The translations under genes were made by a program, and so were the position numbers. A stretch of 64,000 nt of DNA, from contig CAYXFX010000003.1 of NCBI GenBank assembly GCA_964464405.1, positions 6,410 through 70,409 of the forward strand, in the 5' to 3' direction. The notes under the pieces are model-generated. The model had not been told where the DNA came from. It was given only the letters and a program-made list of their open reading frames with translations, and ran no database searches. Position 1 is the stretch's first letter. Each line of letters starts with the position of its first letter. Positions 6,537 to 37,407 of the stretch are shown here, one piece after another. Source of the DNA: an uncultured Candidatus Saccharibacteria bacterium (GTDB taxonomy: Bacteria > Patescibacteriota > Minisyncoccia > UBA11713 > 2-01-FULL-45-33).

Positions 6537-6803
6537 ATGCTGAAAACTCCAGTAAAAAAGAAAATAGTTGAAGCACACAAGACCCACGACAAAGACACAG
6601 GGTCCATTGAAGTGCAAATTGCCCTGCTTTCAAAACAAATCGAGGAACTAACGGATCATTTAAAAAAGCACCCAAAAGACAACCACTCCCGCCGCGGACT
6701 TCTTAAAATGGTTGCTAAAAGAAAAAAGTTTTTGGAATATCTTTCTAAGAAAAACAGGCCAAGCTATGATAAATTGATTAAGAAACTCGGGCTTCGCAAA
6801 TAA
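6537..6803 (+). CDS. rpsO: 30S ribosomal protein S15
   Basis: MLKTPVKKKIVEAHKTHDKDTGSIEVQIALLSKQIEELTDHLKKHPKDNHSRRGLLKMV. The ORF-track start at 6501 is an upstream in-frame TTG; ATG at 6537 gives the canonical 88-aa S15. Confidence 0.85.
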   Translation: MLKTPVKKKIVEAHKTHDKDTGSIEVQIALLSKQIEELTDHLKKHPKDNHSRRGLLKMVAKRKKFLEYLSKKNRPSYDKLIKKLGLRK

Positions 6804-6828: not shown

Positions 6829-7335
6829 ATGACAACAGTTAAACATAAAAACCAAAGAATGGCCGTCTTCATTGACGCGCAAAATCTATACCATTCAGCG
6901 AGAAGTTTATTCGGCGGAAGAGTAAATTTTAAAAACTTAATTCAAACTGCCGTAGGTGGCAGGCAATTAATCCGCGCTTTTGGATACGTAATCAGTACAA
7001 AAACGGGTGAGGAGAAGCCGTTTTTTGAAGCTTTAACAAAATTGGGAATCGAAACCCGCGAAAAAGAGCTTCAGGAGTTTTTTGGAGGCGCAAAAAAAGC
7101 CGATTGGGACGTCGGCCTCGCGGTGGATGCAATCCGCACAGCAGAAATTGTAGACACAATCGTTATAGTTTCCGGAGATGGCGACTTTATTCCGCTTGTG
7201 GAATATTTGAAAAACCAAGGAAGGCGCGTTGAAGTCATGGCATTCGGCAGAAGCGCGTCCGGCAAACTTAAAGAAGCTTGCGACGAATTCATTGATTTAG
7301 GCGAGGAGGGCGGAAAATATGTGATAAAGAGATAG
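6829..7335 (+). CDS. NYN (LabA-like, PIN-related) domain protein
   Basis: VFIDAQNLY...DVGLAVDAI...IVSGDGDFIPLV motifs. Confidence 0.7.
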   Translation: MTTVKHKNQRMAVFIDAQNLYHSARSLFGGRVNFKNLIQTAVGGRQLIRAFGYVISTKTGEEKPFFEALTKLGIETREKELQEFFGGAKKADWDVGLAVDAIRTAEIVDTIVIVSGDGDFIPLVEYLKNQGRRVEVMAFGRSASGKLKEACDEFIDLGEEGGKYVIKR

Positions 7336-28653: not shown

Positions 28654-29097
28654 ATGCAATACCAAGTACCACAATTTATAGAAGTAGAAGATAAAATTTT
28701 CGGGCCGTTAACCGGAAAACAATTTTTCTATATCTTAGGCGGAGGAGCTATTATATTCATTATGTACATTTACCTGCAGCTTTGGGTTGTTATTCTTTTT
28801 GGCATACCTGTCGCTGGCCTTACTGCCTCTTTAGCGTTTTTAAAAATCAACGGAATGCCTTTTATAAAAGTTTTAAATAATGCAGTCGGATACGCAGTTT
28901 CGTCCCGGCTTTACCTTTGGAAAAAAAGTACAAAACTATCGGCGTCCCTGAAATTTGAAACTAAATCTGGCGAGAAGTCGGACTTTTTGCCAGCCAACAT
29001 CCCAACAACCATTCCCGAAGCTGCTCCAAAACTTACAGAAAACAAATTACAAGATTTAGCATGGTCGCTCGACATTAAGCAGCAAATTAAACGTTAG
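28654..29097 (+). CDS. PrgI-family / VirB3-like small membrane protein
   Basis: MQYQVPQFIEVEDKIFGPLTGKQFFYILGG + 2 TM, typical of PrgI-like proteins that precede VirB4 in Gram-positive-type T4SS. Confidence 0.5.
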   Translation: MQYQVPQFIEVEDKIFGPLTGKQFFYILGGGAIIFIMYIYLQLWVVILFGIPVAGLTASLAFLKINGMPFIKVLNNAVGYAVSSRLYLWKKSTKLSASLKFETKSGEKSDFLPANIPTTIPEAAPKLTENKLQDLAWSLDIKQQIKR

Positions 29098-29110
29098 CCA
29101 TTTAACCATT

Positions 29111-29761
29111 ATGGTCCAAGCGCAACCCACACAAAATATATTAAAAATAGAAGAAATAAGAGACGGGGTCTTAATTTTAAAAGACGGATCTTACCGCGCG
29201 ATTTTAATGGCATCGTCCTTGAATTTCGCGTTAAAAAGTACGGAAGAACAGAATGCAATTATTTACCAGTATCAAAATTTTTTAAACTCACTCGACTTTT
29301 CCGTTCAATTCTTTATTGAATCAAGAAATTTAAATATTGAGCCCTATATCGAAACCTTAAAAGAAACGGAATCAAAACAGACAAACGACCTTTTAAAAAT
29401 TCAAATTACTGAATACATAGATTTCGTCCGCACTTTCGTACGCGCTGCGAATATTGTATCAAAAAGTTTCTTTGTTGTGGTTCCTTTTTCTCCGCCCTTA
29501 TTTAATACGCCGCAGGAGGGATTAAAAAATGTTTTCGGCGGATTTTTCGGAAAAAATAAAAATGTAGATGCAAATAAATTAGATCAGGAAAAGTTTGAAG
29601 AATATAAAACGCAGCTTTGGCAAAGGGTGGACAACGTAATTCAAGGGCTTGTTAGAATGGGAGTAAAAACCGTTCCATTAAATACGGAGGAAATAATAGA
29701 ATTGTTCTACGGATTATATAATCCTGGAGAGCTAGAAAAAGGAAAGCCACCTATGGCGTAA
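29111..29761 (+). CDS. VirB4-like ATPase, N-terminal fragment (216 aa); terminated by in-frame TAA-TGA
   Basis: ILKIEEIRDGVLILKDGSYRAILMASSLNFALKSTEEQNAIIYQYQNFLNSLDF resembles the extreme N-terminal region of Gram-positive-type VirB4 (TrsE/PrgJ-like). Same reading frame as the downstream ORF. Confidence 0.45.
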   Translation: MVQAQPTQNILKIEEIRDGVLILKDGSYRAILMASSLNFALKSTEEQNAIIYQYQNFLNSLDFSVQFFIESRNLNIEPYIETLKETESKQTNDLLKIQITEYIDFVRTFVRAANIVSKSFFVVVPFSPPLFNTPQEGLKNVFGGFFGKNKNVDANKLDQEKFEEYKTQLWQRVDNVIQGLVRMGVKTVPLNTEEIIELFYGLYNPGELEKGKPPMA

Positions 29762-29803
29762 TGAGTCACTAAACATAAAACATTAAATACAAAGATAAAA
29801 AAT

Positions 29804-31618
29804 ATGCTTGGATTTGGAAAAAAAGAAAAAGAACCAGAGTTAACGCCAGTTTTCCCAGAGGAAATTTACCGCGCGGGCGTGCTAGATTTAAAAGACGTTA
29901 TTGCGCCTTCGGCTCTTGAGATTACTTCGAATTTCGTGCGTTTAGGAGAAAAACTCGCGCGCACTATGTTTGTTTTTGCTTTTCCAAGATTTCTTTCATC
30001 TAACTGGTTTGCACCGATAATAAACTTAGACAAAGTTATGGACGTATCTATGTATATACATCCCGTAGACACATCCATGGTTTTAAAACGCCTCGAAAGG
30101 AAAGTTGCGGAAGTGCAATCGCAAATTACTGTGCGCCAAGATAAAGGCCTTGTAAGAGATCCTGTGCTAGACACCGCTTATCAAGATTTGGAATCTTTGA
30201 GAGATCGGCTTCAGCAGGCACAGGAAAAACTTTTCAGCTTTGGTCTTTATATAACTGTTTACGGAAACACGAACGAGGAACTCGATAAATTGGAGAAAGA
30301 AATCAAATCAATGCTTGAATCGCGCCTTGTTTACGTAAAACCGGCGCTCTTCCAGCAAAAAGAGGGGATAGATTCTGTTTTTCCGATGCTTGATGACGTC
30401 ATAAAAATTAATAGTTACTTAAATTCATCTCCCGTATCCAGCGTTTTTCCGTTCGTATCTTTCGACCTTACTTCAAATAAGGGAATACTTTATGGAATTA
30501 ACGCGCATAATAATTCTTTGGTTTTGTTTGATCGTTTTAGTTTGGAAAATTATAATTCCGTGATTTTTGCCAAAGCCGGCGCGGGAAAATCCTATGCAAC
30601 AAAGCTGGAAATTATGAGGTCTTTGATGTTTGATACGGAAGTAATAGTAATTGATCCTGAGCGAGAATACGAATATCTAGCAGAAGCAGTTGGCGGAAGA
30701 TATTTTAATATTTCGCTTTCCTCAAAGCACCACATAAATCCATTCGATCTACCTATGCCTAGAGAAGACGAATCTCCGTCAGATGTTTTGCGGTCGCATA
30801 TCATCAACCTTGTTGGCCTCTTTAGAATCATGCTCGGAGGAATTTCTCCAGAAGAAGATGCAATTATTGATCGCGCAATAACCGAAACATATGCTTCGCG
30901 TGACATAACTCCGGATAGCGATTTCTCTAAAGCCGTTCCTCCGATTCTTTCAGATTTAGAACTTGTGCTTGCAAATATGGAGGGAGGAGAATCTCTCGCG
31001 CAAAGACTTAGGAAATTTACGCAAGGAACATGGGCTGGATTTATAAACCAGCCGACAAATGTCGATATCAACCAAAAATTTATTGTATTTTCGGTACGAG
31101 ATATGGAAGATGATCTTCGGCCGGTTGCAATGTACATTATTATACATTTCATATGGAGCGCAATCCGCGCAGAAATTAAAAAAAGGATTCTTGTTGTGGA
31201 CGAGGCGTGGTGGATTATGAAAAATGAAGACGGAGCATCTTTTCTTTTCGGTATCGCAAAACGAGCAAGAAAATATTATTTAGGCCTTACAACAATTACG
31301 CAGGATGTTTCGGACTTTTTAAATTCGCCTTACGGTAAACCGCTAATCACGAACTCCTCAATACAGATGCTTTTGCGCCAAGCTCCGGCAAGTATTGATA
31401 TTTTAAAAGAAACTTTTAATTTAACTGACGAAGAAAAATTTTTACTTTTAGAATCAGATGTGGGAGAGGGAATATTCTTTGCCGGCTTAAAACATGTGGC
31501 AATAAAAATTTTAGCTTCCTACACAGAAGATCAAATAATTACTTCTGATCCGGCGCAGCTTTTGGCAATTAAAAAAGCAAAAGCTCAATTTTTAGCAGAA
31601 CCAAAAAACGTAATGTAA
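29804..31618 (+). CDS. VirB4/TrbE/CagE-family type IV secretion ATPase (604-aa segment)
   Basis: IAPSALEITSNFVRLGEKLARTMFVFAFPR (VirB4 DUF87-like region), Walker A AKAGAGKSYATKLE, Walker B ILVVDEAWW. Confidence 0.8.
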   Translation: MLGFGKKEKEPELTPVFPEEIYRAGVLDLKDVIAPSALEITSNFVRLGEKLARTMFVFAFPRFLSSNWFAPIINLDKVMDVSMYIHPVDTSMVLKRLERKVAEVQSQITVRQDKGLVRDPVLDTAYQDLESLRDRLQQAQEKLFSFGLYITVYGNTNEELDKLEKEIKSMLESRLVYVKPALFQQKEGIDSVFPMLDDVIKINSYLNSSPVSSVFPFVSFDLTSNKGILYGINAHNNSLVLFDRFSLENYNSVIFAKAGAGKSYATKLEIMRSLMFDTEVIVIDPEREYEYLAEAVGGRYFNISLSSKHHINPFDLPMPREDESPSDVLRSHIINLVGLFRIMLGGISPEEDAIIDRAITETYASRDITPDSDFSKAVPPILSDLELVLANMEGGESLAQRLRKFTQGTWAGFINQPTNVDINQKFIVFSVRDMEDDLRPVAMYIIIHFIWSAIRAEIKKRILVVDEAWWIMKNEDGASFLFGIAKRARKYYLGLTTITQDVSDFLNSPYGKPLITNSSIQMLLRQAPASIDILKETFNLTDEEKFLLLESDVGEGIFFAGLKHVAIKILASYTEDQIITSDPAQLLAIKKAKAQFLAEPKNVM

Positions 31619-31660
31619 CCACCTCTTCCACCCCTTTACGAAAAGGGGTTTGGGAGAGGC
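31619..31660. repeat. Diverged copy of the GC-rich palindromic element immediately after the VirB4 stop
   Basis: ccacctcttccacccctttacgaaaaggggtttgggagagg would read PPLPPLYEKGFGRG in the VirB4 frame. Confidence 0.4.
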
Positions 31661-31696
31661 AATAACAATGATAAAATTAGATTAAGATAAATAATA

Positions 31697-32677
31697 ATGA
31701 ACGGTTTAAGTAAAATATTAATAGTCAGTTCGTTACTGCTAATCGCATTCTATGCAGAAGCTCTTACAATTTCAACCGATAATTTGGTGTTGTCTCCTTC
31801 TCCCGCATATCCCAAAGCGAATTCTGAATTTATTATAAAAGCAAAAACATTTTCTTTTGACGCAACTCGCGCGCGTTTTACGTGGTATCTTGATGGTAAA
31901 AAAATCGACGAAGGAACAGGGTTAACCGAACAAACATTTGTGGCAAGAAAGCTTGGATCAAAAATGAATATCCGCGCGGCAGTCCTATCCGCAGATGGGG
32001 AATATTTTGAGGACAGCATCACGATTTCGGTTTCCGATATAGATTTAATTATTTCTCCGCTTACATATACTCCTCCTTTTTATAGAGGCGCGCCCCTAGC
32101 TTCTCCCGGAAGTGTGGTTGAAATTATCGCGATCCCGCATTTATATTCTGGCTCTGCAAGAATTAATCCCCAAAGTTTGATTTACGAATGGTCGTTAAAT
32201 AATAAACCAGTTCAAAATCAATCCGGGGGAGGTAAAAACATACTTTCACTTAAATTAGCGGACGTTTCAAATAGTGAACAAGTTGTTACCTTAAAAGCGA
32301 GCACTGTTTCCGGAAACACGTCTGTTGAAAGAAATGTGCGCGTTAGAACATACCAGCCAGAAATACTTTTTTACGAAACAAATTCCGTAACCGGCAAAAA
32401 AGTAAAAGCTTCATCTTTTTTTAATTTTACTCCAGCAAGCTCTTTTTCAATATTAGCCGAGCCATTTTATATGGCTTTGGAATCTCTTTTAAAATCAAAA
32501 TTCACATGGTTTGTAAACGGAAATATTTTTTCGGAAAACGCAAAAAACCCGTTGGTGTTAGATTTAACTGCTCCACCGGATTCGGAATCACAAACAAATT
32601 TTTCTTTAAAAATCGAAGATGTAGGCACTCTTTTTCAAAGAGTAAGCGGAATTTTAACGGTTAGAATAACAAAATGA
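31697..32677 (+). CDS. Secreted hypothetical protein (326 aa), beta-rich
   Basis: Signal peptide; no recognised domain. Confidence 0.45.
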   Translation: MNGLSKILIVSSLLLIAFYAEALTISTDNLVLSPSPAYPKANSEFIIKAKTFSFDATRARFTWYLDGKKIDEGTGLTEQTFVARKLGSKMNIRAAVLSADGEYFEDSITISVSDIDLIISPLTYTPPFYRGAPLASPGSVVEIIAIPHLYSGSARINPQSLIYEWSLNNKPVQNQSGGGKNILSLKLADVSNSEQVVTLKASTVSGNTSVERNVRVRTYQPEILFYETNSVTGKKVKASSFFNFTPASSFSILAEPFYMALESLLKSKFTWFVNGNIFSENAKNPLVLDLTAPPDSESQTNFSLKIEDVGTLFQRVSGILTVRITK

Positions 32678-33492
32678 ACATTTTAAAAAATTTTAAAAAA
32701 AACACAAGGGGAAGAGGTGGGGGGAAGTCGCTCCAATATGTTTTCGGAGTTCTCGTTATTTTTATGCTTCTTATAACCATATCTAGCCCCACACTCGCCG
32801 CTGAAGATAATGCGACTTACAAACTAATACAGCCGCTTCCGGGAACTCCGGGAAGCGGAGGACCAATAACGGATGTGGGGGGAGATATGCCTTTTGCGCA
32901 ATATATGCAGCGTATCATTCCTTTTATTCTGGCATTTGCAGCGCTTTTAGCTTTGGTGCAAATTGTGGTAGGTGGTTTCGAATATGGGCTTTCCGCAATA
33001 CCGGGCATAAAAGTTGAAGGGAAAGATAGGATAACTAGCGCGCTTTGGGGACTTGGGCTTGCGTTAATTTCTTGGCTGATACTCCGCACAATCAATCCGG
33101 ATTTGGTAAATTTGAAATTTTTTGTACCACGCCCAGTTGGTTTATCGTCACAATCGTCCCCGCCCACACAATCTACAAAAACAAACGATTTACAGCAAAG
33201 TGGCGCCGTAGAAGTAACAAATCCGAACAGCCGTGGTCCGATTTGCCCACCAGGATCAGATAAAACTTGTGATAGAAACCAGAAGTGCGCACTTAATATG
33301 AATGGTACGAATTATGTGTGTGTAAATACAAATGCAGCACAGTCTGCCGACTCAAAAACTGCATTTTTTTGTTCAGCAAACACAAATATTTGTGCATCTT
33401 TTGGAGGAACAATCGCCCCCGGCCTCGCAAATTGTGGAAAATGTAACTCTGGTTATATTTGCTGTGAAAGAAAAGAGTCTATACCAAAATAA
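32674..33492 (+). CDS. Membrane protein (3 TM) with C-terminal Cys-rich extracellular domain; candidate T4SS pilin-like component
   Basis: TM helices then 14 Cys in the last 90 aa (CPPGSDKTCDRNQKCALN...CGKCNSGYICCERK). The N-terminus (NTRGRGGGKS) resembles a partial GC-rich element. Confidence 0.4.
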   Translation: MNILKNFKKNTRGRGGGKSLQYVFGVLVIFMLLITISSPTLAAEDNATYKLIQPLPGTPGSGGPITDVGGDMPFAQYMQRIIPFILAFAALLALVQIVVGGFEYGLSAIPGIKVEGKDRITSALWGLGLALISWLILRTINPDLVNLKFFVPRPVGLSSQSSPPTQSTKTNDLQQSGAVEVTNPNSRGPICPPGSDKTCDRNQKCALNMNGTNYVCVNTNAAQSADSKTAFFCSANTNICASFGGTIAPGLANCGKCNSGYICCERKESIPK

Positions 33493-33495
33493 AAC

Positions 33496-34725
33496 ATGCA
33501 AAATTTATTAACAAAAAAGAATTTAATAATCGCAGTTGTATCAATTTTAATTATTGTTGGTATTATCATTTTCTTTGCCAGAAAAAATGGTGATAACGAA
33601 AATTCAAATAGTGGAGGATTTTTTGGACTCTTTCCAGCAAGCGAAGAGCCGTCTGTAACCGCACCGTCCGAAACACCCGCCTCGTCGGCGGGCGAGTCGG
33701 ATGTTTCCGCATCCGGAGTTTCCCAAACCCAATCCACATCGACCCCTCCGATCGGAACAATGTTTAGAATTACTGACAATGCTGTTTCTTCACTGGTCGG
33801 GACAAAATCCGGAAACATAAGATATCACAAAAATACACCTGAAAATATCGGGCATTTGTTTGAAAGAAGCGCCGAAGGAAAATCGGAAGAAAAACGTCTT
33901 TCAAATTTCACCATTCCGCAGATTACGAAAGTCGTCTGGTCGCCAGACGCAACGCGCGCTTTGATATTTTATAATTTGGACGGAGAAATAAGAAAAATTT
34001 TGATTGATTACAGATCAACATCAACCCCCAAAACCAATTTCCTTCCGGATGGAATTTTGGACGCCGCATTTTCTCCTGATTCAAAATCTATTGCTTATAT
34101 AAATAGCGAAAATGGTGTTTTTATTGCGACTTCAGATTTTAAATCTCCCAAGAAAATAACGAATAGCGAGGTTTCTAACCCGGAAATCAGCTGGCCTTCA
34201 CCAAATTTTTTATCTTTGAAAACAAAATCTTCGTACGCTTCGCGCGGATATTTATACAAAATGGATATTCGCACAGAAACTCTCGAAAAAATTGCGGAAG
34301 GGTTGGGATTAGATGCCGTTTGGTCCGGTGACGGTTTGGGAGTTTTATATTCGACAGTAAATAGCGCGGGAGAAATGCAAAATTTAATCTACTTAAATAC
34401 AAAAACCGGCGAGAAAAAAGAAATTTTAATTAAGACAGTGGCGGAAAAATGTGCCTTTTTAAATTCGATCAAAACTGTAGCTTACTGCGGCGTCCCCAAG
34501 CTGGATTCCAACGTACTTTCTCAAAAATATCCTGATTCTTGGTGGCAAGGCAGAACTTCTTTTATAGACGATTTTTGGTTATTTGACGTGGCGACAAATC
34601 AATTAGCAAGCTTTATTGCGACTTCATTTGATGTTATTAATCCTAAGCTGATGAGCGACGACTCGTATCTAATTTTTCAGGATAAAATTTCCGGATCATT
34701 ATGGAGTTTGAAACTTAAAATATAA
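33496..34725 (+). CDS. Membrane-anchored TolB-like beta-propeller protein
   Basis: N-terminal TM; repeated WSPD/FSPD PD40-like motifs (VVWSPDATRALIFYN, AAFSPDSKSIAYINS). Confidence 0.5.
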   Translation: MQNLLTKKNLIIAVVSILIIVGIIIFFARKNGDNENSNSGGFFGLFPASEEPSVTAPSETPASSAGESDVSASGVSQTQSTSTPPIGTMFRITDNAVSSLVGTKSGNIRYHKNTPENIGHLFERSAEGKSEEKRLSNFTIPQITKVVWSPDATRALIFYNLDGEIRKILIDYRSTSTPKTNFLPDGILDAAFSPDSKSIAYINSENGVFIATSDFKSPKKITNSEVSNPEISWPSPNFLSLKTKSSYASRGYLYKMDIRTETLEKIAEGLGLDAVWSGDGLGVLYSTVNSAGEMQNLIYLNTKTGEKKEILIKTVAEKCAFLNSIKTVAYCGVPKLDSNVLSQKYPDSWWQGRTSFIDDFWLFDVATNQLASFIATSFDVINPKLMSDDSYLIFQDKISGSLWSLKLKI

Positions 34726-34751: not shown

Positions 34752-35525
34752 ATGTTTGACGAACTTAAAAAAATTGGATTATCAGAAAACGAGGCGCGTG
34801 TTTATTGCGCACTTCTTGAGTTAGGATCAGCAACTGCGCAAGAAGTTGCGAAAAAAGCCGATGTTAAACGCGCTACGACTTATGTTCAATTGGATTCTCT
34901 TATGAAAATAGGCTTGGTAACATCTTTTGAAAAAACCCCCGAAAGAAAAAATGGAGCAGGTAAGACATACTTCCGCGCGGAAGATCCATCATATTTAGAA
35001 AAAATTGTCGAGCGCGAAAAGAAAACAGCAGAAGACCGCGAAAAGGTTTTGAGAGAAATACTTCCGGCGCTAGAAAAAGTGTTTTTATCTTCTGGCGAGC
35101 GCCCTCGCGTAAGATTTTTTGAAGGAGTGGAAGGCCTCCGCACAATGCAGGATGAGTTTTTGAAGTCAAAATCGAAAGAAGCAGTTGGCTTTTCTTCGGC
35201 TGATGACATTTTAAGAATTTTTCCTTCGCATCCTTCCGAATATTCTCCGAGGCGGGTAAAAAGCAGGATACATTCTAAAGTGATCTATACAAGCTCTAAA
35301 GGAAAAATTCTTAAAGAAGTAGACCAAGAAATGATGCGCGAGGCTCGTTTCGTGCCGGAAGCTAAATTTCCTTTTACATGCGATGTTGTCATTTATGATA
35401 ATAAAGTCGCAATTTCTGCTTTAAGTAAAAAACCAATGGGCGTAATAGTTGAAAGTGAAGAAATAACTGAATCATTCCGTTCAATGTTTGCGCTTGCTTG
35501 GGAAGCTGCTGAAAAATATCAATAA
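34752..35525 (+). CDS. TrmB-family HTH transcriptional regulator
   Basis: MFDELKKIGLSENEARVYCALLELGSATAQEVAKKADVKRATTYVQLDSLMKIGLV wHTH plus a TrmB C-terminal domain. Confidence 0.65.
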   Translation: MFDELKKIGLSENEARVYCALLELGSATAQEVAKKADVKRATTYVQLDSLMKIGLVTSFEKTPERKNGAGKTYFRAEDPSYLEKIVEREKKTAEDREKVLREILPALEKVFLSSGERPRVRFFEGVEGLRTMQDEFLKSKSKEAVGFSSADDILRIFPSHPSEYSPRRVKSRIHSKVIYTSSKGKILKEVDQEMMREARFVPEAKFPFTCDVVIYDNKVAISALSKKPMGVIVESEEITESFRSMFALAWEAAEKYQ

Positions 35526-35526
35526 A

Positions 35527-35703
35527 AAAGCCGGGGGCGTTCGACGGCCCCCGTAAGGAGAAAAAAATAAAAATTTTTTTCTTTCTTTTTTTATTTTTTC
35601 ACATTAATTCCCGCCATAATATGGCGGAAAAAAACACATCAACCTCCCAGGTTTAGAACAACATCCGACCACCTCCTTTCTGATAATCCGCACCTCATAT
35701 CCC
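35527..35703 (-). ncRNA. Candidate small RNA (about 175 nt) with its own consensus promoter and an intrinsic terminator
   Basis: Promoter P3 on the minus strand (tgtcaa 35731-35736 / attata 35709-35714 in plus coordinates). Internal hairpin ccgccauauuauggcgg. Terminator cgggggccgucgaacgcccccg followed by UUUUUU (35553-35525). No ORF. Confidence 0.35.
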
Positions 35704-35864
35704 ATCTAATTATACTCCTTTTATATGTTTTGTCAAATTATTTGGGCAGAATTGAATTACATGCTTAATTACGAACTGCCGCGCTTCAACAACATTTCAT
35801 AAAGAAAAAAACGGCTTAAAATAAAGCGCTTTTGTGAACTTTTACACAAAAGAGCCATAAACGC

Positions 35865-35892
35865 TTGACAAACTTCTACAAAGGAGTATAAT
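35865..35892 (+). promoter_or_regulatory. Consensus promoter P2 (TTGACAAAC..AAAGGAGTATAAT), divergent from P3
   Basis: TTGACA-N16-TATAAT with the same extended motif as P1 and P3. Confidence 0.5.
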
Positions 35893-35903
35893 GCTATTTA
35901 GTT

Positions 35904-36590
35904 AAGTTGAAATAACGACTTAACCGAAAGGGGTGGTATGGAATATGGGCAAAAACTAAAATAATAGCCCGAACCACAACCACTTCAAGGTTTCGCCCTT
36001 TAGGCGGACAAGTTTGATAAAAAAGTCATGGGTGGTTCCTCTCATCCCGCCGAAAGGCAGGCAAGCTAGAGAGGAGACTAGGGGATAATGTGACCCCTCG
36101 CCTCCTCTTTAAAGAGGAACAAGATATGCGAGATATTCTCGCAGCGCTCAAGGGCGCTAGGTTAATCGCTAAAACCTACGCCGCGGAGCAAAGGATAGCC
36201 CACTATCTTTTGCCGAACGGTCAGGTTGCGGAGGTTACCCGGCGGGTTAGGCCCAAAGAGCGCAAAAATATCCTGGTAGCCCGTCCCAGGTTGCGCTAAA
36301 TAGCGCGTAAAAATGAAGGCTTGCGGGTTTGTGTGTTCCTGCATAGGTGAGCCAGAAATCATCTAAAAATTAGAACACTCCTCGGGGCGGCGGTTAGCCC
36401 TGATAGGAAGTCAACGCACTTCCGACTTCCATCAAAATTCATTTTAATGCTAAAAATTAAAACGGATTTTAATGGGAGTAGGTGAGCCTGAGTGCTTTGC
36501 ACAAGCGGAAGCTAAGAGTTGTCTGCAAGGTGATTAACTCCGGGCTTACGTAATCGTCCACCCACCGCTCTCTTAGCCCTTTTCAAAATA
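35904..36590 (+). ncRNA. GC-rich, densely structured non-coding region; candidate stable RNA(s), possibly including RNase P RNA (P4-like strands AGCCCG at 36283-36288 and ACUCCGGGCUUA at 36540-36551)
   Basis: GC content far above flanks. Chain of hairpins including a GAAA tetraloop (gccGAAAggc). 3' motif aACUCCGGGCUUA resembles the RNase P CR-V ACAGAANCCGGCUUA; AUAGGUGAGCCAGAAAUC resembles AUAGGGCAGG..GCCAGGUAAC. rnpA is 2 kb away. ORFs in the track here look spurious. Confidence 0.3.
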
Positions 36591-36611
36591 AAAAAAATTT
36601 AAGGAGGAAAA

Positions 36612-36848
36612 ATGTTAAATCAGAAGCTTAGTTTGGTGTTGGCAGGTTTGTTGTCAATTTGGTTTCTTTGTTTGGGGCTTGCGATCCTCACCCGCCAGCA
36701 CAGTTGGTTTCTTCGTTTTTCTCGCCGCCAGGCAGCCAGACCATTTCGCTGGATCTGGCGCCACTGGCATACGCAGATTACCTGGGCGCTCATCGGTGCA
36801 GGCGTCCTCCTCTATTATCTCGTTTCCACCAACCGCATTGCTCCTTGA
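36612..36848 (+). CDS. Small two-TM membrane protein (78 aa) with strong SD (AAGGAGG) and a downstream terminator; GC-rich
   Basis: AAGGAGG 7 nt upstream of ATG; hydrophobic-RW rich-hydrophobic architecture; intrinsic terminator at 36950-36983. Confidence 0.35.
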   Translation: MLNQKLSLVLAGLLSIWFLCLGLAILTRQHSWFLRFSRRQAARPFRWIWRHWHTQITWALIGAGVLLYYLVSTNRIAP

Positions 36849-36949
36849 AGCAATGCCCCTACCAAAGTTTTGTATGCAATCAGTGTTCTATAAGTACGCT
36901 CATATTAATAAAAAATTTTGGTAGGATTAAAAAAGGTTATGACCGCAAC

Positions 36950-36983
36950 CGCGCCAAGCAACAGCTTCGGCGCGATATTTTTT
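36950..36983 (+). terminator. Rho-independent terminator (cgcgccaagc-aaca-gcttcggcgcg + TATTTTTT)
   Basis: 10-bp GC-rich stem with a tetraloop, then a T-run. Confidence 0.5.
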
Positions 36984-37092
36984 AAATAAATCGAGATGTT
37001 GATTTTTCACAAAAAACAAGTTAAGCTCTTGTAGGTAAAAAAGAGAAAAGGAGAATAAGACGTTTAAAAAACTAAATAATCAGCTCGAAAAA

Positions 37093-37407
37093 GTGGGTAT
37101 GATTCTAAATCATATTTTTGATGATATTTGCGGTGTAGAGCATAAAGAACAGGTCGGCCAAAAAGAAAACTTCTATCAATATGTGTCTTTTAGTATTATT
37201 TTTTTGTATTCATCGATATGCATAGCCTCAACAATAGTTTTGTTCTGTATTCCGATTTTTAGGTTAAAGACGAATTCCTCAATACAAAATTTTTACTTCG
37301 ACAACATGTACTGGATAATCCCATTGACGATGCCGACCGGATGGATTATCTCAAAACAACTTAACGCAAAACTTTGGGCTTTTATAAAAACAAAATACAA
37401 ATCCTAA
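37093..37407 (+). CDS. Hypothetical membrane protein (104 aa)
   Basis: ORF followed by terminator aatctcgcc-aaa-ggcgagatt + ATTTTTT (37405-37432). Confidence 0.35.
   Translation: MGMILNHIFDDICGVEHKEQVGQKENFYQYVSFSIIFLYSSICIASTIVLFCIPIFRLKTNSSIQNFYFDNMYWIIPLTMPTGWIISKQLNAKLWAFIKTKYKS

Follow-up and report, generated by a model that had tools for sequence, protein, structure and literature searches.

Between a regulator gene and a small open reading frame (ORF), in a host of the candidate phyla radiation (Patescibacteria), lies a GC-rich, gene-free stretch that starts at position 35899 of the 64-kb window analysed here. The window is the whole stretch of DNA, and positions refer to it unless another locus is named. 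It matches a metagenome-assembled genome of Candidatus Giovannonibacteria, GCA_016176325.1, contig JACOXL010000004.1, from a tiny bacterium that occurs in the groundwater read sets SRR12113383, SRR12113384, SRR12113420, SRR12113424 and SRR12113430. The gene order is a type-IV-secretion-like cluster, a TrmB-family regulator, the RNA locus and a 78-aa ORF (36612-36848); beyond that ORF come Jag, YidC, RnpA and RpmH on the opposite strand, and then DnaA and DnaN. On the evidence of sequence, the locus from 35899 onward is a real non-coding RNA gene on the plus strand, with predicted transcription. Its first part, a core of about 225 nt, is a previously uncatalogued structured RNA family, of the kind of regulator-adjacent structured bacterial RNAs. 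It seems highly probable that three things hold together: that the RNA locus is real, that the core defines an uncatalogued family, and that the RNA is not the RNase P RNA suspected in a first-pass annotation of this DNA.

The first-pass annotation described the stretch as far richer in GC than its flanks and free of credible ORFs, and both descriptions hold. From 35900 to 36400 the GC content lies at 0.46-0.54, compared with 0.32-0.39 on either side (35400-35900 and 36900-37400); it drops to 0.41-0.44 at 36400-36600 and comes back up to 0.51-0.52 over the downstream ORF. A search of 5.8 billion proteins gives no homologue for the longest internal ORF, which runs for 69 aa from a GTG start (36090-36299). 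Pfam gives no match for it or for three minus-strand ORFs (41-66 aa) in the RNA region, and the public assembly has no gene called there. By ARAGORN the whole window is free of tRNA and tmRNA genes, and Rfam 15 at gathering thresholds gives zero matches across it. The neighbours had also been named: the RnpA gene is indeed 2 kb away in the ORF list, and the "trmB" neighbour is present as a member of the PF01978 transcription-regulator family, not as the tRNA methyltransferase.

The locus is strongly folded. The 702 nt from 35899 to 36600 have a minimum free energy (MFE) of -259 kcal/mol, against -205 +/- 6 for shuffled sequences (z = -8.7, with 0 of 20 shuffles as good), and the opposite strand reaches z = -8.2. 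Taken separately, the 5' 227 nt score z = -5.35 on the plus strand and -4.78 on the minus strand, and the 3' 475 nt score -4.96 and -3.11. All the named features of the continuous chain of hairpins in the first-pass annotation exist, several of them 3-11 nt away from where they had been placed (Table 1).

Relatives of the locus were sought through the neighbouring genes. The YidC/Jag synteny route led to nearest species representatives that are only 42% identical, and in four Giovannonibacteria loci reached via Jag homologues Jag passes straight to the secretion cluster, with no regulator gene and no RNA. The regulator-gene route succeeded and gave the loci L033 and L034. In both, as in the window, the TrmB orthologue is followed by a bidirectional terminator, then by one promoter on the minus strand and one on the plus strand, and then by GC-rich gene-free DNA. 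An unbiased metagenome scan with the motifs AAATAATAGYCC and CATGGGTGGT, common to the window, L033 and L034, returned copies of the L033 type (also L039, L040 and L043) and of the L034 type (also L042), one new type (L036/L044) and four chance matches. The covariance model R1 scores the window at 122 bits, L033, L036 and L044 at 194-219 and L034 at 124, and it found one further and more divergent locus, L050, which had no part in building the model, at 77 bits (E = 3.5e-21). With filters off, the model finds nothing in six other related loci. By nhmmer the window is tied to L033 at E = 0.03 only. L033 and L036 share 90% identity up to about nt 190 and have no relationship past that point.

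The RNA locus is absent at the same genomic position in L024, L026, L027, L029 and L032. Phage, plasmid and viral-contig collections hold no match (four viral pattern matches are chance), and an origin in phage, plasmid or virus was ruled out on that basis. As far as sampled, the family is limited to a subclade of Candidatus Giovannonibacteria. Neither the core nor the whole locus matches any of 4,227 Rfam families, and full-text literature searches found no description of it.

The core consists of a long hairpin, a linker, a short hairpin and a long terminal hairpin, in that order. The long hairpin closes an A-rich loop of 15-17 nt across the five sequences. The outer-stem sequences of this hairpin (Stem I) are wholly different between loci, yet pairing is kept, and the same architecture appears in independent single-sequence MFE folds of all five distinct sequences. 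In the core alignment 20 of 47 pairs are changed on both sides, against 9.2 +/- 2.3 in shuffles (0/500), and 85.5% of cells are paired, against 36-55% when the partners are slid. G-U cells number 36 and A-C cells 11, which favours the plus strand. A comparison with relatives, as the first-pass annotation had proposed, thus finds pairing support for 35899-36125. What it had offered as a fallback, "large unclassified structured RNA, or more than one RNA", describes the locus well: a conserved core of ~225 nt plus a lineage-specific structured extension. The motifs AAAAUAAUAG, GGUAU and CAUGGGUGG are invariant in the core (Table 1).

The same comparison bears on whether a protein-coding region was missed here. 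The 69-aa GTG ORF and several ORFs of 41-66 aa do overlap the region, but they come without homologues, Pfam matches or a called gene. L033 and L036 differ by a 1-nt indel directly after CAUGGGUGG, which breaks the frame and therefore excludes a conserved reading frame in the core. Coding sequence is an extremely improbable explanation of the locus.

The core is faced by a sigma-70 promoter that matches the consensus at 12 of 12 positions, with a predicted transcription start at about 35899, and the promoter TTGACAAA...(G/C)GAGTATAAT is found at a fixed distance in all homologous loci. A TrmB orthologue (61-74% identity) adjoins the RNA in all five sequence types, which are L033, L034, L044, L050 and the window. 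Two arrangements occur: in L044 the RNA and the TrmB orthologue diverge, ~120 bp apart, and in the other four types the RNA lies downstream of the orthologue. A conserved promoter of its own and steady adjacency to a transcription-factor gene are what mark a regulator-adjacent small RNA (sRNA), and this RNA has both. In addition, L033, L034 and L036/L044 have a palindrome, TTGTCA-N8-TGACAA, across the -35 box of their RNA promoter, and L050 has it across that of a second promoter. Its position over the promoter in the relatives makes it a candidate operator, and the dimeric regulator acting there would most simply be the TrmB-like protein next door.

The 3' limits of the RNA differ between loci. 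In the window the stretch from 35893 to 36612 has neither a promoter nor a terminator predicted on the plus strand. The last hairpin of the core has no U-run in the window, L033 or L036; only in L034 does a U-run follow it, which gives it the look of a terminator. A second consensus promoter comes after the core in L034 and L050. In L033 (~850 nt) and L036 (~420 nt) the RNA region meets no terminator before it reaches a tRNA gene, for tRNA-Tyr or tRNA-Pro. Local alignments among the window's extension (475 nt) and those of L033 (~635 nt) and L036 (~220 nt) score no higher than shuffled controls (z = 0.4-1.9), and homology of the window's extension to the other two was ruled out on this measure. 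Tandem or array-like repeats were not found in it, short two-copy repeats only. A long-range helix between CAUGGGUGG and C-rich 3' segments, considered together with an end-closing pair, was rejected at duplex energies of z = -1.7, 0.2 and 0.1.

The ORF that follows the extension has ten homologues in an exhaustive profile search (E 3e-15 to 8e-4), which share the motif WF..LGLAI..RQH...RPFRW.W.RW. Judged from this conservation, the ORF is a real gene of a small two-helix membrane-protein family, and it is probably co-transcribed with the RNA. A terminator-like hairpin further on, which the scanner left unlisted because its loop setting was too short, is the likely end of the transcription unit (36950-36983).

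The reading that we prefer, at a probability of about 0.5 with its mechanism counted in, is that a new regulator-linked small RNA core has been fused here to a long structured leader. The core would be transcribed from the sigma-70 promoter at 35865-35892 on the plus strand and would serve as a trans-acting regulatory or protein-binding small RNA, with the invariant unpaired motifs as contact sites. In the relatives, the neighbouring TrmB-like protein would control the RNA promoter through the palindrome, as in known regulator/sRNA pairs. Action in trans through the invariant motifs and TrmB control in the relatives are what we infer from anatomy and gene linkage. In this genome no terminator follows the core, and read-through into the membrane-protein gene is therefore most likely. 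Transcription would run past the core, through a structured segment of 470 nt and into the gene of the two-helix protein, and would end at about 36983. The resulting transcript of ~1.1 kb may be structured RNA and mRNA at once.

Several sRNAs are encoded next to their regulators, as in SgrR/SgrS-SgrT, OxyR/OxyS and GcvA/GcvB, and the RNAIII of Staphylococcus aureus encodes delta-haemolysin. The present family resembles these in that an RNA gene with a strong promoter lies beside a transcription-factor gene (divergently, at ~120 bp, in L044), that a palindrome overlaps the promoter in most loci, and that conserved unpaired motifs are set in a variable structured RNA. As in SgrS-SgrT and RNAIII, a small ORF sits on the same predicted transcript in the window. 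It differs from them in having no sequence or model similarity, in its candidate-phyla-radiation host, in a regulator of the TrmB family, and in the long extensions, not homologous to one another, that come after the core in three loci. To our knowledge, almost nothing is known about the regulatory RNAs of candidate-phyla-radiation bacteria, whose genomes are tiny. If the preferred reading is right, the locus would be among few candidate regulator/small-RNA pairs in that radiation, and would offer a handle for metatranscriptomic and biochemical study.

A number of observations weigh against a regulator-linked trans-acting RNA. The results fit a trans-acting RNA and a cis-acting leader alike, and the start and ends of the transcript are predictions. 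The loci L032 and L051 have a TrmB orthologue and no RNA, so the linkage between TrmB and the RNA is one-directional. The palindrome is absent from the whole window with 2 mismatches allowed, and regulator control is therefore not arguable for this genome. The window holds no complementary target for AAAAUAAUAG or CAUGGGUGG beyond the motifs themselves; the single 1-mismatch complement of CAUGGGUGG is there at chance frequency. The 3' extension (36126-36590) has no homologue in any related locus. As for the covariation, it was counted over five distinct sequence types (six aligned rows, two close relatives), in an alignment fitted to the covariance model, and the window is the most divergent member, with several of its helices put out of register by the model.

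One rival is the RNase P RNA proposed in the first-pass annotation. The P4 helix of RNase P RNA is formed by the conserved regions CR-I (GGAAAGUCC...) and CR-V (ACAGAANCCGGCUUA). The locus is GC-rich and multi-hairpin in an AT-rich genome, has one 12-nt string, ACUCCGGGCUUA at 36537-36548, that resembles the CR-V consensus, and has rnpA 2 kb away. The string is indeed present, as ACTCCGGGCTTA, but not at 36540-36551, and it is found only in the window's unconserved 3' 470 nt, the part without homologues. The complementary AGCCCG is present too, at 36278-36283 and 35966-35971, but the second copy is held as the 3' strand of the inner hairpin, where GGGC/GCCC changes to GGAC/GUCC in L034. The proposed closure of the ends by GGGGUGG and CCACCC fails: GGGGUGG (35930-35936) is the 5' strand of a rival local helix with ACCACUUC, at the place of the family's covarying outer stem, and the duplex energy of the closure is not significant. 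L036 (420 nt) has no 3' strand of the CCGGGGCU type, and L033 also lacks a matching one. The proposed comparison with Rfam gave no match to RNase P, intron, OLE, ROOL, GOLLD, HEARO or tmRNA models. For RNase P there is none at E<=10 in 35600-36900, 36110-36610, L036 and L033 (stretches of 1301, 501, 751 and 221 nt) and none at E<=5 across all 64 kb. The short-stretch searches did list chance hairpins at 7-12 bits, a level at which an RNase P match of similar weakness ought to have shown. Nor does a covariance model (RF00010/RF00011) match the locus, and a conserved P4 cannot be drawn in it; the locus is about twice the usual length with an unconserved 3' half, only ~225 nt are kept among relatives, and it is missing at the same position in close relatives. 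On the other side, Lui et al. 2021 (PMC8172020) reported diverged, sub-threshold RNase P RNAs in the candidate phyla radiation, which they found with the RF00010 threshold at 5 bits; in 10 of the 35 genomes of this kind that threshold had to be lowered. With the CR-V-like string unconserved, AGCCCG covarying locally and GGGGUGG in a local helix, a highly diverged RNase P RNA is very improbable. A false annotation lead is thereby removed, which matters as truly diverged RNase P RNAs have been reported in these organisms.

Two other explanations seem possible though unlikely. One is a single large "ornate" RNA of ~690 nt, comparable to OLE, ROOL and GOLLD, with a 3' domain that evolves too fast to compare and that may work with the downstream membrane protein. 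It would account for the missing terminator and second promoter between 35899 and the ORF, for the significant and strand-biased structure of the 3' part (z = -4.96 vs -3.11), for the terminator-free regions of L033 and L036 and for the real small membrane protein downstream. Like OLE, ROOL, GOLLD, HEARO and raiA, the locus has several hundred nt of dense structure and no coding capacity, and like OLE, whose membrane partner is OapA, it has a small membrane-protein gene immediately 3'. However, only its first ~225 nt are conserved, its distribution is very narrow, and its downstream gene varies across the family. The extensions of the window, L033 and L036 are dissimilar and range from 220 to 640 nt, the core stands alone in L034 and L050, where a new promoter follows, and pairing of CAUGGGUGG with the C-rich 3' segments is no better than chance. 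OLE, ROOL, GOLLD, HEARO, raiA and intron models give no match at E<=10 in 35600-36900 or 36110-36610; matches to IMES-2, GP20-a, sok and microRNAs, at 10-21 bits and far below gathering scores, were set aside as noise. A bolder form of the ornate RNA, a ~1.1-kb dual-function molecule of a new kind, in an ultra-small symbiotic bacterium, in which the core carries a large lineage-specific folded domain that would partner the co-encoded membrane protein in the style of OLE and OapA, is a long shot. If true, the interchangeable 3' domains of the relatives would be alternative functional "cargo" on a common core. The other explanation is a cis-acting leader (riboswitch, attenuator or processive-antitermination element) that controls downstream genes. 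The core invariably comes first behind the promoter, with other genes after it. In L034, if only there, its last hairpin looks like a terminator, and in several loci hairpin-rich DNA follows the core. What lies downstream is unrelated among loci, namely the membrane-protein gene, tRNA-Tyr, tRNA-Pro with a 43-aa basic ORF, or a fresh promoter, a variety that is not typical of riboswitches. Even at 7-11 bits, models of T-boxes, riboswitches and leaders give no match. The T-box offers a likeness, with a long 5' hairpin, a following linker GGGUGGU(C)ACC that resembles the T-box GGGUGGNACC, a terminator-like terminal hairpin in one locus and tRNA genes downstream in two. It was rejected: the model does not match at E<=10 (~7 bits) in 221 nt of L033 or in 35600-36900, the sequence lets neither a specifier loop nor an antiterminator bulge be drawn, and none of the genes downstream encodes an aminoacyl-tRNA synthetase or belongs to amino-acid metabolism. 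A functionless GC-rich hairpin remnant, left for example by mobile or repeat elements that decayed in an intergenic hotspot of variable length, is quite improbable. The interval from regulator to Jag does vary from ~0.2 to 4.3 kb among relatives, palindromic CCAYCAAAG hairpins recur in it, and the 3' extension is unique to this strain. Against decay stand a perfect promoter at a conserved position, and invariant motifs and two-sided pair changes across otherwise widely different sequences, and no match was found in phage or plasmid collections or viral contigs.

Table 1. Features of the RNA locus and its surroundings. Positions from the first-pass annotation are added in brackets where they differed.
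Feature	Position	Strand	Basis or remark
TrmB-family winged-helix transcription regulator, 257 aa	34752-35525	+	PF01978; NCBIfam matches cover the N-terminal HTH only
Divergent second RNA candidate, ~170 nt	35532-35736	-	promoter 35736-35709; bidirectional terminator 35532-35553
Sigma-70 promoter TTGACA-16-TATAAT, -10 region GGAGTATAAT conserved	35865-35892	+	12/12 consensus match; faces the RNA
Conserved 5' RNA module (family core)	35899-36125	+	covariance model, covariation, fold z = -5.35
5' hairpin	35901-35924 (35910-35933)	+	read from sequence
Stem I	35930-35986	+	outer stem 35930-35937/35979-35986; middle stem; inner stem 35946-35950/35967-35971; 16-nt A-rich loop 35951-35966
GGGGTGG	35930-35936 (35933-35939)	+	read from sequence
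GGUAU, invariant	35935-35939	+	identical in 6/6 aligned sequences
Invariant motif AAAAUAAUAG (loop and first stem base)	35958-35967	+	identical in 6/6 aligned sequences
Invariant linker motif CAUGGGUGG, single-stranded	36027-36035	+	identical in 6/6 aligned sequences
GCCGAAAGGC	36049-36058	+	read from sequence
Long terminal hairpin of the core	36067-36115	+	helix 6: 9/19 pairs changed on both sides
CCTCTTTAAAGAGG	36104-36117	+	read from sequence
Lineage-specific structured 3' extension or long 5' leader	36126-36590	+	z = -4.96 vs -3.11 on the minus strand
TGCGAGA/TCTCGCA	36127-36143	+	read from sequence
AGCCCG	36278-36283 (36283-36288), also 35966-35971	+	read from sequence
ATAGGTGAGCCAGAAATC, RNase P-like string of the first-pass annotation	36343-36360	+	read from sequence
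Long AU-rich hairpin, CCAYCAAA...UUUGRUGG type	36421-36487	+	folds; kin in L033, L034, L050, L024, L052
ACTCCGGGCTTA	36537-36548 (36540-36551)	+	read from sequence
CCACCC	36558-36563 (36569-36574)	+	read from sequence
Ribosome-binding site AAGGAGG	36601-36607	+	A-rich stretch, then the site, leads into the 78-aa ORF
78-aa gene, two predicted membrane helices	36612-36848	+	profile search homologues
Hairpin 3' of the 78-aa ORF	36858-36925	+	read from sequence
Terminator-like hairpin CGCGCCAAGC/GCUUCGGCGCG, then AUAUUUUUU	36950-36983	+	read directly from sequence
Palindrome TTGTCA-N8-TGACAA in relatives	L033 6139-6158, L034 6088-6107, L044 4144-4163, L036 9571-9590, L050 6545-6564		candidate operator

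The divergent RNA candidate on the minus strand, between the regulator gene and the core, has a TTGACA-16-TATAAT promoter of its own that matches the consensus at 12 of 12 positions. Its position and a 5' motif, GGAGGUG...GUGG, are kept in L033, L034, L050 and the window. The motif reads AAGGAGGUGAUGCGAAG(G)UGAGUGGCG in L033, L034 and L050, and the window keeps only GGAGGUG...GUGG of it. The counterparts lie at L033 5765-6080, L034 5780-6010 and L050 5780-6075. The candidate has no Rfam match and contains mini-ORFs of 3-12 codons only.

Upstream of the regulator, the type-IV-secretion/pilus-like cluster (28654-34725) encodes PrgI-like, TraC-like, VirB4/TraG-type ATPase and T4SS-pilin-like proteins. 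It is syntenic beside the replication-origin genes in all Giovannonibacteria loci examined, and the interval from it to Jag is a variable hotspot of ~0.2 to 4.3 kb.

Within the 3' extension of the window, a direct repeat UAGGUGAGCC(A/U)GA occurs at 36344-36356 and 36479-36491, each copy just 3' of a hairpin. Palindromic hairpins of the CCAYCAAAG...CUUUGRUGG type recur in the intergenic DNA of the clade, usually without a U-run. They are seen at 36421-36487 and 36858-36925 in the window, at 6539-6575 and 6738-6806 in L033, at 6962-7027 in L034, at 7429, 7970 and 9031 in L050, at 5486-5549 in L024 and at 11-44 in L052. The one in L052 stands directly 5' of the gene for a 78-aa-protein homologue, whose ribosome-binding site falls in the 3' arm of the hairpin. 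These hairpins may serve as terminators peculiar to the clade or control translation, or they may be repeat elements. The 78-aa gene itself is ~51% GC, unusually high for this genome, and its family is small and unannotated. The single contig that gave gene context for a homologue is 544 bp long.

The related loci have features of their own. In L033 and L036 the sequence AAUAGGU(G/A)AAC comes right before the invariant CAUGGGUGG, and processing of the terminal tRNA (L033 7028-7115, L036 9042-9118) could define the 3' end of the RNA. After the tRNA-Tyr of L033, a GC-rich structured stretch at 7120-7310 contains an SRP-RNA-like string, CAGCGGAAGGCGGCAUCAG, and has no Rfam match at gathering thresholds. 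L034 (6447-6800) and L050 (6550-6910) have three things in common downstream of the core: the second promoter, a small ORF (28-43 aa) and a block, ...GUCGCGGGCGAGACCCGCAU...GGAGGUGGCAAAAUAUGCGUUGAA, that is conserved, apparently does not code for protein and may be another RNA element.

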